Shown piece by piece: positions 53,949 through 56,352 of a stretch of DNA of 64,000 bases; position 1 is the stretch's first letter; each line of letters begins with the position of its first letter. The DNA comes from a virus. The position numbers and the translations under genes are program-made. The notes under the pieces were generated by a model that did no database searches, was not told the origin of the DNA, and saw only the letters and a program-made list of their open reading frames with translations. The DNA is taken from IMG/VR virus record IMGVR_UViG_3300027769_000875, positions 54,974 through 118,973 of that record; one strand, written 5' to 3'.

Positions 53949-53991
53949 GAGGTGAGTGTGGGGGAGTAATCCCTCACCACACCTTTCTTTG
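53949..53991 (+). terminator. Intrinsic terminator
   Basis: GGTG..GTGTGGGGA-GTAA-TCCCTCAC.CACACC hairpin followed by TTTCTTT. Confidence 0.6.
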
Positions 53992-54066
53992 ACTTCAATT
54001 TTTGGTATCATTAGCCACAAAGATTGTCGCAGTAGATGGCTATATAACAGTTTAAACACCCACGTT

Positions 54067-54531
54067 ATGCAAAGAGCACGTATGTTAGCACATTTGGAAC
54101 TAGATAGTAGACATGACTTAGATAGTTCTTTTTTTATATCAGATAGAGAGTTTCATGAAGTACTAGGTAAGTTACATTCTACCTATAATATGAATACTGA
54201 TTCCCTTGAGGAGTTTCATATTAAGAATAGAGTTAACTTCCTGGACCTTGGTTATGGTGATTGTCATTCCTTTGTGTTTGATAAGCATCAGTACTTCTCT
54301 TTTGTCTGTATGAAGTCTGTAGGCTGGCAAGGTGATAAAGATATAGACTCTCAGTGCTATGTCAAAGTCCCTTACAAGACTACTGAAGAGATTATGGAGG
54401 AGTATTCCTTCTTGTTTGAGAACAAGCCTTCTCCTAGACTTCCTGATGATGATATCTTTGGTGTCAAGCCTGATACTAAAGATACACTTCCTCAAGATTT
54501 GAGAGATCCTGAGTGGTATGAGTTTGATTAA
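54067..54531 (+). CDS. Hypothetical protein
   Basis: Likely start MQRARML at 54067, because the track's upstream start lies within the terminator. Confidence 0.55.
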   Translation: MQRARMLAHLELDSRHDLDSSFFISDREFHEVLGKLHSTYNMNTDSLEEFHIKNRVNFLDLGYGDCHSFVFDKHQYFSFVCMKSVGWQGDKDIDSQCYVKVPYKTTEEIMEEYSFLFENKPSPRLPDDDIFGVKPDTKDTLPQDLRDPEWYEFD

Positions 54532-54559
54532 GCTCGTACCACTTTTTTTCCTTATCATT

Positions 54560-55453
54560 GCAGACTGAGTTGCAAATCAGTTTGTTTTGAGAAAGCCATT
54601 CCTATTGATCATGTAGGAATTTGCAGGTAAGAGTCCTGATTATAAGTATACATTGTTGTTGCCCTCAGAGTTGAAATGCTCATGGCGTATGCGTTAAGCT
54701 CCCTTGTGGAGTTACTGAAACAACAGGTCAGCCTTCGTGACCATAGGATAAACCAGTGATGGTATAAAGTGATGTGTTGGTAACACATTGCGCAGAGAGT
54801 AATCTCTGTCTACTGAAAGGTACTACATTCCCTGTAGTATGGTGTGCTCGTGGCCTAACGGTTGATGCACAGTATTACAGAACTTCTGACAGGCAGGAGT
54901 TTGAGAGAGAAATCTCAATAGAAGAGTGTAGTAAGCAAATTGTAGTAGGAGTCGCCAACTCTGAAGCGTTTGTTAGTTTTTTGTAGTCTGTTGGTAGAAA
55001 TACCGTGGACAATTACAATCAACAGTGAGTATCCTTGGCAGGTGAAAACAGAAAGAAGTTGTATCTAAACTACTCAAAAGGTAGCATGATGCTGTGCGCT
55101 TGGGCCACTTCTTTCACAAATCCTGGACCGCTTAAAACTTTAATTATCTTAAAGAGAAAGCAAAAGTGTCCAAGCACGTATTGGTGATAATACTCTTATT
55201 CTGCTGTAATATGCAGATGTCTGATGTTCGCAAGACAGATGACAAGGGAAATGATTACTATCTAACTAACAGGAGGCATCTTGTAAATCCTTTGCAGGGA
55301 AGTTGGTAGGAAAAGGAACCTATGAGCCAATATGTAGTGGTCAGACAGAAACCTATTCTGTTGAGTATGTCGTGTACTTGTTTAACCGCAAGTGTGTGTA
55401 AGATGACGAAAGTTGTCAGAATCACGATATGAAAGGTCAACACTCAGCCTTTT
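54560..55453 (+). ncRNA. Large structured ncRNA, GOLLD-like (~890 nt)
   Basis: No credible ORF and a dense array of hairpins, several with GAAA/GTAA loops. Long-range and pseudoknot pairs include TCAGAGTTG 54665-73 with CAACTCTGA 54956-64, and GCTTGGG 55098-104 with TCCAAGC 55169-75. A closing 3' domain GTTGAGT-ATGTCGTG...CACGATAT...ACTCAGC is followed by a T-run. Confidence 0.7.
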
Positions 55454-55464
55454 GAATTTTTTAA

Positions 55465-55905
55465 GGACAGCATTGTTATAAGTATCACTCCATTAAAAGC
55501 TGATACAAGACTTGTTATAGCTGTAAGCAAGTTATTTTACATTTTTACTGACTGATAGTCAGGCAGTTGTAGAAAATATGATGGGTCTGAATTGACAGAC
55601 TAAGAGCAGTACGCTGAGAGGTTGCCTAAGTACACGGTGTAAAACGAACGTCCTCATCATTAGCACATTACAAGTTACTTAATCCTTAACAGGAAGATAA
55701 TTGGAATGTGCACTACAGCTGTGTGTAAAACTCGTTTGAGCGAGTATAAATAGTTGCTTAAGCTCAAAGCGTTGTAGAAATACAGGTGCACTGCATGAAG
55801 TTTGTAGGGTATACGCCAGTCGTGCGAACCCTATAGGAGTGATTTCCTAATGCCATACGAAGTATAGTAGTATGGCATTGAACATATCAACAGTTTTTTG
55901 ATGTC
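55465..55905 (+). ncRNA. Second large structured RNA (~440 nt), family unassigned
   Basis: No ORF. Multiple helices (55578-85/55653-60, 55663-69/55705-11, 55804-10/55828-34, 55849-58/55870-79). Loop AGCTGTA (55519-25) is complementary to TACAGCT (55714-20). Confidence 0.55.
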
Positions 55906-55929
55906 TAAACAAATTAAATCTTAAAGTAT

Positions 55930-56352
55930 ATGAAAGTATTAGTGAACAAATGCTATGGTGGTTATGGTACGTCTGTTGAAGCAGGTCTTGAATGGCTTAA
56001 AAGAAACAACAAAGTTTTTACTGTTATTGATGACAGTTATAGTCTTGTTGTAGAAATGGATGGTGAAAAGCACTACATAGACTTAGACAGAGAAGATCCA
56101 ATTCTTATAGAGTTGTTTGAAGAGAGAGGCAGTAAGTTTGTCTCTGGAAATCATGCAGAACTTGTATTAGTTCATATTCCTGACAACTGTGAGTATTCTG
56201 TTGGAGAATATGATGGTCAAGAATGGATTGAGGAGACATGGATCAACGTAACACTTGAAGAACTAAAGAATGGTTTGTCAGAAGACAAATTACTTCTTGC
56301 TCAACAGGTTTCTTGTATAAGAATCGCTGATGAGAACCCTACTAGTAACTAA
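55930..56352 (+). CDS. Widespread phage protein of unknown function (NKCYGG family)
   Basis: MKVLVNKCYGGYG...REDPILIEL...G..AELVLVHIPD...GEYDGQEWIEE is a recurrent phage-protein pattern. Confidence 0.7.
   Translation: MKVLVNKCYGGYGTSVEAGLEWLKRNNKVFTVIDDSYSLVVEMDGEKHYIDLDREDPILIELFEERGSKFVSGNHAELVLVHIPDNCEYSVGEYDGQEWIEETWINVTLEELKNGLSEDKLLLAQQVSCIRIADENPTSN

Follow-up and report, generated by a model that had tools for sequence, protein, structure and literature searches.

A divergent GOLLD RNA gene in a freshwater crAss-like phage, probably followed by a processing module with a decayed twister-like element and a Pistol ribozyme

The stretch of DNA analysed here (the window, 64,000 nucleotides of a virus record of 118,973 nt) is likely to carry a divergent GOLLD RNA gene of a freshwater crAss-like phage that is followed by a processing module, namely a decayed twister-like element and an intact Pistol self-cleaving ribozyme. 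The GOLLD RNA gene would extend over 54654-55450 on the + strand, possibly starting at 54560 instead, and its conserved 3' domain (55051-55450, +) matches the Rfam GOLLD model RF02032 end to end (model positions 1-416 of 416, 117.8 bits, E 6.3e-32). The record bears phage marks, a portal protein and a major capsid protein that matches Pfam Crass_capsid with 111.8 bits, which bears out the crAss-like origin claimed in an earlier note made from the sequence alone. No tRNA gene was detected in the 64-kb window or in the whole 118,973-nt record, in agreement with that note, which had seen none beside the RNA.

The RNA lies in a gap of the ORF list, 54532-55929, that is wider than the 54560-55453 described in the earlier note as free of any credible ORF; the observation holds for the wider gap, whose longest ORF has 70 aa under table 11, 88 aa when TAG is read as Q and 90 aa under table 4. 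As there is no long ORF under any of these three codes, a coding reading of the gap was rejected. The upstream gene (53956-54531, +; 191 aa, function unknown) has no PHROG or Pfam match and a relative in the related locus L006 that is 76% identical. At its end a consensus scan found a terminator-like hairpin followed by a T-run (54511-54549, +; 15 pairs, then TTTTT), suggesting that the GOLLD RNA may be a transcription unit of its own; a scan for sigma-70 promoters gave 6 sites versus 4.8 +/- 2.0 in shuffles, i.e., no excess. The gene on the other side (55930-56352, +; 140 aa, phrog_16527, function unknown) is preceded by a conserved tail that includes its 5' leader (55792-55929, +), recognised by conservation and fold, with hairpins at 55805-33 and 55850-78, a fold z of -2.5 and a U55851-A55877 pair that is replaced by C-G in L006, L109 and L005.

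The Pistol ribozyme at 55730-55791 (+) matches RF02679 over model positions 1-68 of 68 with 55.0 bits, above the gathering score of 34.5, and comprises P1, P2, P3 and the conserved linker. Matches in related loci score 51.9-64.6 bits, and the P3 pair A55776-U55781 is changed to G-C in L109, a compensatory replacement. The Pistol literature places the cleavage site at a GU junction between P3 and P2, near the 3' end of the ribozyme (PMC4604425); G55786 and U55787 align to the P3-P2 junction columns of RF02679, and the cut is predicted between these two bases. Pistol was found in all 5 related loci that reach this place (5 of the 7 loci scanned), and in L002/L003 it begins only 5 nt after GOLLD. 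Its distribution is confined to a narrow lineage of at least 94% identity. GOLLD was verified at E 1e-5 in 46 of 93 records searched, and our corrected tallies use such verified loci: Pistol is found in 0/45 of the other verified GOLLD records and in 0/31 records of the nearest subfamily, and 40 + 17 further loci gave no self-cleaving ribozyme at Rfam gathering level.

Between GOLLD and Pistol lies a variable insert of 279 nt (55451-55729, +) which, by alignment to relatives, appears to be a decayed copy of a long twister-like element. It retains the stems P2, P4 and P5, P2 through compensatory change, but neither the loop UUCCCAAGG nor the 3' GAGGGG. The distance from GOLLD to Pistol among close relatives is 5, 166, 206 or 279 nt, and a 73-nt piece (55463-55535) is missing from L106 and L109. 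The long element stands directly 3' of GOLLD in 5/7 full-length relatives and in L005. It resembles twister in the order of its motifs (UAAUG, P2, a P4 hairpin with a CCCAAG-type loop, P2', GAGGG), and differs from twister type P1 in an extra hairpin of 25-123 nt and in being missed by the Rfam twister models: the long elements of L005, L138, L143, L137 and L131 gave no match to the twister-P1 and Twister-P5 models at E up to 10. A compact form occurs in L121 and L136, where a 52-nt match to twister-P1 (RF03160) lies exactly at the GOLLD end, its 56.8 bits (E 4.6e-10) falling below the cut-off of 67.2, and in L138 this site, flanked identically, holds the long element. By this resemblance the long element may be a ribozyme. 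The window copy departs from twister in the lost loop and GAGGG, and as 54300-56100 gave no twister match at E up to 10 (RF03160, RF02684), we call it twister-like and decayed and do not file it as twister. A mobile-element reading of the insert was also considered and rejected, no other copy being present in the genome or in the related loci examined. Both the Pistol, 280 nt downstream of the RNA, and the element in between had been omitted from the earlier note.

What stands at the 3' end of GOLLD varies among phages. A same-strand tRNA adjoins it in 14/43 verified GOLLD loci and in 13/28 loci of the nearest subfamily, and is therefore a tendency and not a defining GOLLD trait. In another 13/28 loci of that subfamily this position holds no tRNA and no recognised ribozyme, and six of these (L115, L116, L131, L137, L138, L143) bear the long twister-like element missed by Rfam models. 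These counts indicate that a flanking processing element is frequent, yet not universal.

We propose that the GOLLD RNA folds into two domains and that its copies, by homology with solved GOLLDs, would self-assemble into a hollow RNA-only cage. Pistol would cut between 55786 and 55787 and so yield two RNAs, one carrying GOLLD and ending in a 2',3'-cyclic phosphate, the other the message of the next gene, starting with a 5'-OH; such a separation is probably its role. As this phage has no tRNA genes, the ribozymes most likely stand in for the tRNA-processing enzymes that act in other phages. The cut lies close to the 3' end of Pistol itself, which would leave 336 nt attached to GOLLD here (62 nt in L002); trimming of GOLLD explains this no better than trimming of the message downstream. 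More broadly, we tentatively consider that in phages lacking tRNA genes GOLLD is released by self-cleaving ribozymes acting as "punctuation", which turn over at one junction, a generalisation that we regard as possible and hold with less confidence than the description of the locus. The junction is seen in several states: a twister-type element in relatives, such an element together with Pistol in one close relative, a dead copy with Pistol in the window, and Pistol alone in another relative. If this reading is true, the exchange of ribozyme classes at one fixed position would mean that there is selection for cleavage as such, that cage building by GOLLD depends on a free and defined end, and that Pistol and bacterial twisters gain a concrete biological job.

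The separation of the two RNAs may instead serve mainly the downstream 140-aa gene, Pistol supplying a clean 5'-OH message freed of a huge folded RNA while the 3' end of GOLLD is made otherwise. We consider this rather doubtful, and it is the rival to be taken most seriously, as the cut at the GU leaves 5 ribozyme bases downstream and the whole ribozyme on GOLLD (PMC4604425), and as the tail at 55792-55929 is kept, together with Pistol, in every relative reaching that far. In L005 an intact-looking twister-like element lies beside GOLLD and a Pistol beside the gene, which would fit one ribozyme per neighbour. Against this, the Pistol of L002/L003 follows GOLLD after 5 nt, and neither a T-run nor any other element is present there that could end the RNA. 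Nor are ribozymes known to accompany homologues of the downstream gene in named phages, and a role for the gene and a role for GOLLD are mutually compatible.

Termination could also make the GOLLD end. The earlier note had the 3' domain close just before a T-run, and a T-run is indeed present at 55451-66; it is absent in L002/L003. It follows the last GOLLD hairpin in the window, L006, L108, L106 and L109, which are exactly the loci with the decayed twister-like element, as would be expected if GOLLD ended there and the insert, Pistol and tail formed a separate downstream unit. We find this unlikely because the final hairpin of GOLLD, with 3 pairs in the Rfam model, is weak and was not called by the terminator scan, because L002/L003 do without the T-run, and because contigs of two RNA libraries from two studies span it (X16 to 55608, X17 to 55715). 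These two belong to four metatranscriptome runs of four studies whose contigs cover the RNA from 54661 or 54714 to between 55326 and 55715, contigs in themselves proving neither transcription nor ends. The stops at 54661 or 54714, recurring in several runs, most likely reflect breaks in assembly where sites vary. On the RNA the contig depth was 15-656, on the neighbour genes 0-54, a measure that cannot rank parts. The junction 55786/55787 was crossed by no contig among the matches listed and 54208-54660 was uncovered; neither counts as evidence.

We regard it as quite improbable that the 440 nt after GOLLD (55465-55905) are a second large functional RNA, making this a tandem ncRNA locus. The stretch has several hairpins and a conserved 3' third, and the survival of stems P2, P4 and P5 in an insert that has lost its core motifs could point to a new structural use. 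Yet it holds a complete Pistol ribozyme, and the insert folds with a z of only -1.57, 16/200 shuffles being as good. In addition, since 55453-55727 is wholly missing in L002/L003 and shortened in L005, L106 and L109, the helix 55484-91/55836-43 that would join the ends of such an RNA cannot be conserved.

The identity of the RNA itself is supported on several sides. The window match of 117.8 bits is below the RF02032 gathering score of 150, and therefore Rfam's own pipeline would not label the RNA; the score marks it as a divergent GOLLD member that routine annotation misses. The same match is found in 6/7 related loci scanned, the seventh contig beginning past the RNA, and in our viral sample 10/46 GOLLD matches lie under the 150-bit cut-off. 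Kretsch et al. gathered 806 GOLLDs by cmsearch at E 1e-5, according to their preprint (bioRxiv 10.1101/2024.12.08.627333); the window match satisfies this threshold, and this lineage could already be among the members of their alignment. The Rfam scan that the earlier note had proposed thus returned GOLLD in full length, and none of the other three classes it had named (ROOL, OLE, HEARO) in 54300-56100 at E up to 10. Introns and all other RNA classes in Rfam were likewise rejected at E up to 10, save for four chance-level rows, and three loci found with a generic GOLLD pattern were discarded as dicistrovirus IRES regions. A DNA search for named phages with this locus gave no match, searches with the flanking proteins returned 5 related loci only, and one metagenome scan returned 5 loci, each at least 94% identical. 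The L005 sequence is 94.6% identical in its GOLLD part versus 80% in the region of the next gene, a contrast that we count as a sign of selection on the RNA.

Upstream of the Rfam-matched region we place a 5' domain of 397 nt (54654-55050), the front 159 nt of which are shared with 5 GOLLD loci and the back 238 nt of which are lineage-specific but covarying. The front (54654-54812, +), an enclosing helix with hairpins and the motif AGGAUAAnCCAGUGAUGG at 54748-65, was recognised with a covariance model (R1) that matches L064 (44.4 bits, E 1e-10), L026, L066, L074 and L034. In 5/5 loci the match lies on the same strand as the GOLLD core and ~370-450 nt upstream of it, and L034 and L074 are above-cut-off GOLLDs (304.8 and 250 bits). 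In the alignment of this front 97.6% of cells pair and 36/48 pairs are altered on both sides. Models of the back (54813-55050, +; helices 11-22, including the hairpin GGUA-GAAA-UACC at 54993-55004) gave no credible match when run on 45 further GOLLD loci, the three weak matches of R2 (E 0.17-0.63) all being on the wrong strand or side, and R3 adding none. Preceding the 5' domain is a structured leader of three hairpins (54560-54653, +) specific to a sub-lineage: it folds in the window, L006, L109 and L106 (z -2.5 to -4.2), with compensatory changes, and is replaced by unrelated sequence in L002, L107 and L108.

Folding and covariation, which the earlier note had named as checks, both came out in favour of a structured RNA. 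The + strand of 54560-55453 folds at -262.4 kcal/mol versus -235.2 +/- 7.4 in 20 shuffles (z -3.69, 0/20 as good), and the - strand has a z of -2.04. Across 12 sequences of 70-100% identity, 110/223 predicted pairs are altered on both sides and 98.0% of cells pair, versus 86.2% in shuffles (0/500) and 36-47% in slid controls; covariation runs the length of the 800 nt and includes the 3' domain at 55051-55450 (helices 23-40). An RNAalifold fold of six near-identical sequences was set aside, its long-range helices being lost in the wider alignment. Most helices of the earlier note survive this comparison. The hairpin ATTCCTA/TAGGAAT (54598-604/54614-20) keeps its pairing in L109 through a U-A to C-G change; the enclosing helix TGTTGTT/AACAACA (54654-60/54719-25; helix 1) and the hairpins ATGTGTT-GGT-AACACAT and CAGAGA-GTAA-TCTCTG (helices 7 and 8 of the front alignment) covary in distant GOLLD loci, each with 7 pairs altered on both sides; the stem of GGTA-GAAA-TACC covaries around a GAAA loop that is invariant in 12/12 sequences; and GAAAGAAGT/ACTTCTTTC (55051-59/55107-15; helix 23), which covaries, corresponds to the stem that opens the Rfam GOLLD model. 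For TACTACA/TGTAGTA, it is a rival long-range helix, 54821-30/54924-33, that bears the covariation (helix 11, 6/9 pairs altered on both sides).

The earlier note had claimed two pseudoknots, one of which is real and family-wide. It joins 55098-55105 with 55168-55175 (+; 8 bp, seven of which, 55098-104/55169-75, had been noted), directly 3' of the AAAGCAAAAGU motif; 99% of cells pair versus 87% in shuffles (0/500) and 16-44% in slid controls, and 5/8 pairs are altered on both sides. The same pairing, which links the internal loop in the first stem of the 3' domain to the bases following AAAGCAAAAGU, is complementary at 7/7 positions in 16/20 sequence classes of verified GOLLD loci, among which its 7-bp arms have many different sequences. 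The other, 54665-73/54956-64, found no support (78.7% of cells pair versus 77.6% in shuffles, 170/500 as high), and the bases of its 3' arm form part of a local hairpin that covaries.

Based on these data, the view of the earlier note that this is a GOLLD-class member or a new relative is supported by the end-to-end RF02032 match (E 6e-32), the pseudoknot, the core motifs and the homology of the 5' domain, and sequence comparison argues that 54654-55450 is a divergent GOLLD and not a new class. That an unrelated class merely resembles GOLLD is hardly tenable: the score is below the gathering cut-off and the back 240 nt of the 5' domain have no detectable homologue beyond the lineage, but the match covers all 416 model positions with conserved motifs and pseudoknot present, the front of the 5' domain is common to above-cut-off GOLLDs, and weaker conservation of GOLLD 5' regions is already on record (bioRxiv 10.1101/2024.12.08.627333).

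GOLLD is among the largest bacterial and phage RNAs; that it forms an RNA-only cage is known, what it does and how it matures is not. Most bacterial self-cleaving ribozymes are likewise without a known role, as stated in a review (PMC6765202). A lineage that has GOLLD without tRNA and interchangeable ribozymes on its 3' flank poses the question whether cleavage sets the GOLLD end for assembly. New beyond the earlier note are the predicted Pistol, the putative decayed twister-like element and the finding that one pseudoknot is unsupported. A whole branch of GOLLD, carried by crAss-like and large freshwater phages, falls below the Rfam cut-off and is missed, which matters for annotation and for the choice of structural constructs. 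In the literature as far as its text could be searched, we found no paper linking GOLLD with self-cleaving ribozymes, those naming both, including PMC5737381, drawing no link in the parts available; among the matches listed for GOLLD since 2018, no title concerns crAss-like phages or ribozymes.

Compared with known systems, the Pistol of the window is like those described for RF02679 in its P1 hairpin, conserved linker, GU junction and phage association (PMC4604425), and unlike the literature cases in its position directly behind a GOLLD RNA, a location not found in the searchable papers, and in that its cleavage is predicted. ROOL, OLE and HEARO are also large and ornate, and ROOL is also phage-borne and cage-forming, but the window RNA has no Rfam match to any of them. 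With GOLLD (RF02032) it shares a length of ~800-890 nt, a phage host, a 5' half of ~400 nt before a conserved 3' half of ~400 nt, the core motifs AAAGCAAAAGU, the UCAAAAG and UCGCAAG loops and the pseudoknot after the core motif, as well as a GAAA loop conserved in the 5' domain. It differs in its score of under 150 bits, the lineage-specific back half of its 5' domain, the lack of a tRNA in or beside it, the ribozymes on its 3' flank and its crAss-like phage genome. The env-38 GOLLD (833 nt) forms a D7 14-mer cage (bioRxiv 10.1101/2024.12.08.627333); what is seen there would hold for the window RNA by homology. Among its close counterparts are the GOLLDs of large phages at L064, L066, L088, L026 and in the AGGAUAAnCCAGUGAUGG subfamily, which are also below the Rfam cut-off (70-104 bits). 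These sub-cut-off GOLLDs differ from the window in lying in tRNA or tmRNA arrays without Pistol, with a tRNA beginning 10-38 nt past the RNA in L088, L066 and L064 and, in some, inside the linker, whereas the motif and helices of the 5' domain are common to that subfamily and the window.

The RNA at 54654-55450 is a divergent member of the known GOLLD family. Its 3' half (55051-55450, + strand) is matched by the Rfam GOLLD model (RF02032) over its whole length, positions 1-416, at 117.8 bits and E 6.3e-32, a score below Rfam's cut-off of 150 that was reported by E-value, and the GOLLD-class assignment proposed in the earlier note is upheld. The match recurs in six of the seven loci scanned (the close relatives L002, L003, L005, L006, L106 and L109), the seventh, L004, starting downstream of the RNA. 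As the Rfam model describes the conserved 3' half of GOLLD only, the 5' half was compared separately. Using nhmmer and a covariance model of 54654-54812 (R1), homologues outside the lineage were found in L064 (44.4 bits, E 1e-10), L026 and L066 (E about 1e-7) and L074 and L034 (E about 1e-4), all five lying on the same strand and preceding the GOLLD core of their own locus by about 370-450 nt; L034 and L074 are canonical GOLLDs of 304.8 and 250 bits. In the R1 alignment, which is fitted to the model and hence biased towards structure, 97.6% of cells are paired as compared to 73% in shuffles (0/500), and 36 of 48 pairs changed on both sides (slid controls, 38-48%). Covariance models of the remaining 240 nt of the 5' half matched nothing beyond the lineage.

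The window covers the rightmost 64 kb of a 118,973-nt virus record. The RNA lies there in an ORF-free gap that follows the end of a 191-aa gene at 54531 and extends to a 140-aa gene starting at 55930. The longest ORF encodes 70 aa (table 11), 88 aa (TAG=Q) or 90 aa (table 4), in agreement with the earlier claim of no credible ORF. At 54560-55453 the + strand folds better than shuffles (z -3.69; 0/20 as good) and the - strand gives z -2.04, while G+C is 40.7% as compared to 34.9% in the genome. A terminator-like hairpin with a T-run (54511-54549) overlaps the upstream gene's stop just ahead of the RNA's leader. The phage is crAss-like, as had been suggested: its major capsid protein matches Pfam Crass_capsid (111.8 bits, cut-off 27), and its portal protein is 22-27% identical to crAss-like portals and 31% to that of a Leptolyngbya phage. 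The sequence occurs in freshwater and lake metagenomes. That no tRNAs flank the RNA holds for the whole genome, which has 0 tRNA genes.

A lack of covariation among homologs had been named as speaking against a structured RNA, and covariation is what we find. A 5'-domain motif scan provided full-length relatives at 70-85% identity (L123, L143, L131, L137, L116, L115 and L135), and 12 sequences of the whole RNA were aligned with MAFFT, with no structure fitting. RNAalifold predicted 223 pairs, of which 110 changed on both sides. Pairing holds in 98.0% of cells as compared to 86.2% in shuffles (0/500), and slid controls gave 36-47% paired with 17-23 such pairs. Most of the hairpins described earlier and both enclosing helices stand. 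The proposed pseudoknot 55098-104/55169-75 covaries within the lineage as an 8-bp pairing, and its equivalent is fully complementary (7/7) in 16 of 20 sequence classes of verified GOLLDs generally. The other pseudoknot, 54665-73/54956-64, falls, as it shows no covariation and its 3' arm contributes one strand to a local hairpin (54948-52/54958-62) with 4/5 pairs changed on both sides. The stem of the GGUA-GAAA-UACC hairpin covaries around an invariant GAAA loop, which may be the counterpart of the conserved GAAA loop L11a in env-38, the GOLLD of the solved cage structure. RNAalifold also pairs GGAC of the linker (55128-55131) with GUCC after the core motif (55168-55171); this pairing covaries too, competes with the pseudoknot over the same bases and may represent an alternative fold or an inter-molecule contact.

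The sole match in the window at Rfam's own cut-offs is the Pistol ribozyme (RF02679) at 55730-55791 (55 bits, cut-off 34.5), which recurs in L002, L003, L005, L006 and L109; L106 stops short of the site. Close relatives (at least 94% identity) differ in how far Pistol lies from GOLLD: 5 nt in L002/L003, 166 nt in L005/L110, 206 nt in L106 and L109, and 279 nt in the window (55451-55729), L006 and L108. A 73-nt piece (55463-55535) is missing from L106 and L109. In the distant full-length relatives a conserved element begins about 8-12 nt after GOLLD (the gap in L143 is about 125 nt), comprising, in order, UAAUGCACC, a 5-bp stem that encloses the loop UUC(C/A)CAAGG and is complementary in each of its four versions, a hairpin of variable length (25-123 nt) and (A)GUGCAGAG(G/U)G. 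Eight distinct long copies were found, in L005/L110, L115, L116, L131 (two), L137, L138 and L143. As Rfam's twister models do not match the long form, we call it only twister-like. At the same spot L121 and L136 carry a compact 52-nt element matching twister-P1 (RF03160; 56.8 bits, E 4.6e-10, cut-off 67.2). The long form of L138 sits between flanks matching those of L121, so that near-identical flanks enclose 52 nt in one and 157 nt in the other, an exchange of versions that looks allele-like. In L131 (12771-14000, minus strand) two tandem twister-like elements with extra hairpins of 25 nt and 123 nt directly follow GOLLD.

The 279-nt insert of the window can be aligned to the long element. 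It keeps the P4 and P5 stems, and P2 through a compensatory change, and lacks both the conserved loop and GAGGGG at the 3' end; by this alignment it is a decayed copy of the twister-like element. L005 holds an intact-looking copy together with Pistol, and L002 has Pistol alone. After Pistol (55792-55929), hairpins at 55805-33 and 55850-78, the latter kept paired by a U-A to C-G change, are retained in every relative extending that far and may form the 5' leader of the 140-aa gene.

Based on homology, conserved structure and a Pistol match that exceeds the cut-off and has a canonical GU junction, we propose that the RNA would assemble into a GOLLD-type cage and that Pistol, predicted to cut between 55786 and 55787, would detach the RNA carrying GOLLD from the message that follows. 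As the cut site is near the ribozyme's own 3' end, GOLLD would be left with a 336-nt tail, which keeps alive the alternative that Pistol chiefly trims the downstream message. That GOLLD instead ends by termination at the T-run (55451-66) is also still conceivable, but contigs of two RNA libraries cross it. Contigs of four metatranscriptome runs from four studies cover the RNA, although they are not proof of transcription and RNA ends are not visible in them. One contig, from run X15, has a loose end at 54743 and runs on into a different GOLLD variant with the same 5'-domain motif, indicating several subfamily lineages within one freshwater sample.

At E 1e-5, GOLLD was verified in 46 of 93 pattern-bearing virus records, 36 of them above the cut-off. 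Three loci with the loose pattern (L015, L033 and L078) are dicistrovirus-like, with Cripavirus IRES matches of up to 192 bits, and not phages, which cautions against tallies from pattern alone. Freshwater-1 RNA (RF02979, 75.4 bits) occurs at L138:12522-12584, roughly 6 kb downstream from the GOLLD there. Large-phage GOLLD loci L026, L066, L119, L120, L132, L141 and L142 lie within tRNA arrays with tmRNA matches; several of them contain a tRNA inside the linker of GOLLD, with a tRNA-like gene of 121-127 nt adjoining the 3' end. Pistol is present in one of the 46 verified records, a relative of this phage, and in none of 31 nearest-subfamily records. A same-strand tRNA directly abuts the 3' end of GOLLD in 14 of 43 verified loci; in the nearest subfamily this applies to 13 of 28, many with tRNA-like genes of 121-127 nt. 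The gap measures 10 nt in L088, 15 nt in L066 and 38 nt in L064. Another 13 of the 28 lack a tRNA as well as any ribozyme recognised by Rfam; six of these 13 carry the long twister-like element. With tRNA, twister-type or Pistol elements at its 3' side, the GOLLD flank thus frequently, though not universally, carries something that is cut. The RNA itself belongs to a known family; a ribozyme flank of GOLLD and its turnover find no mention in the papers that were searched.
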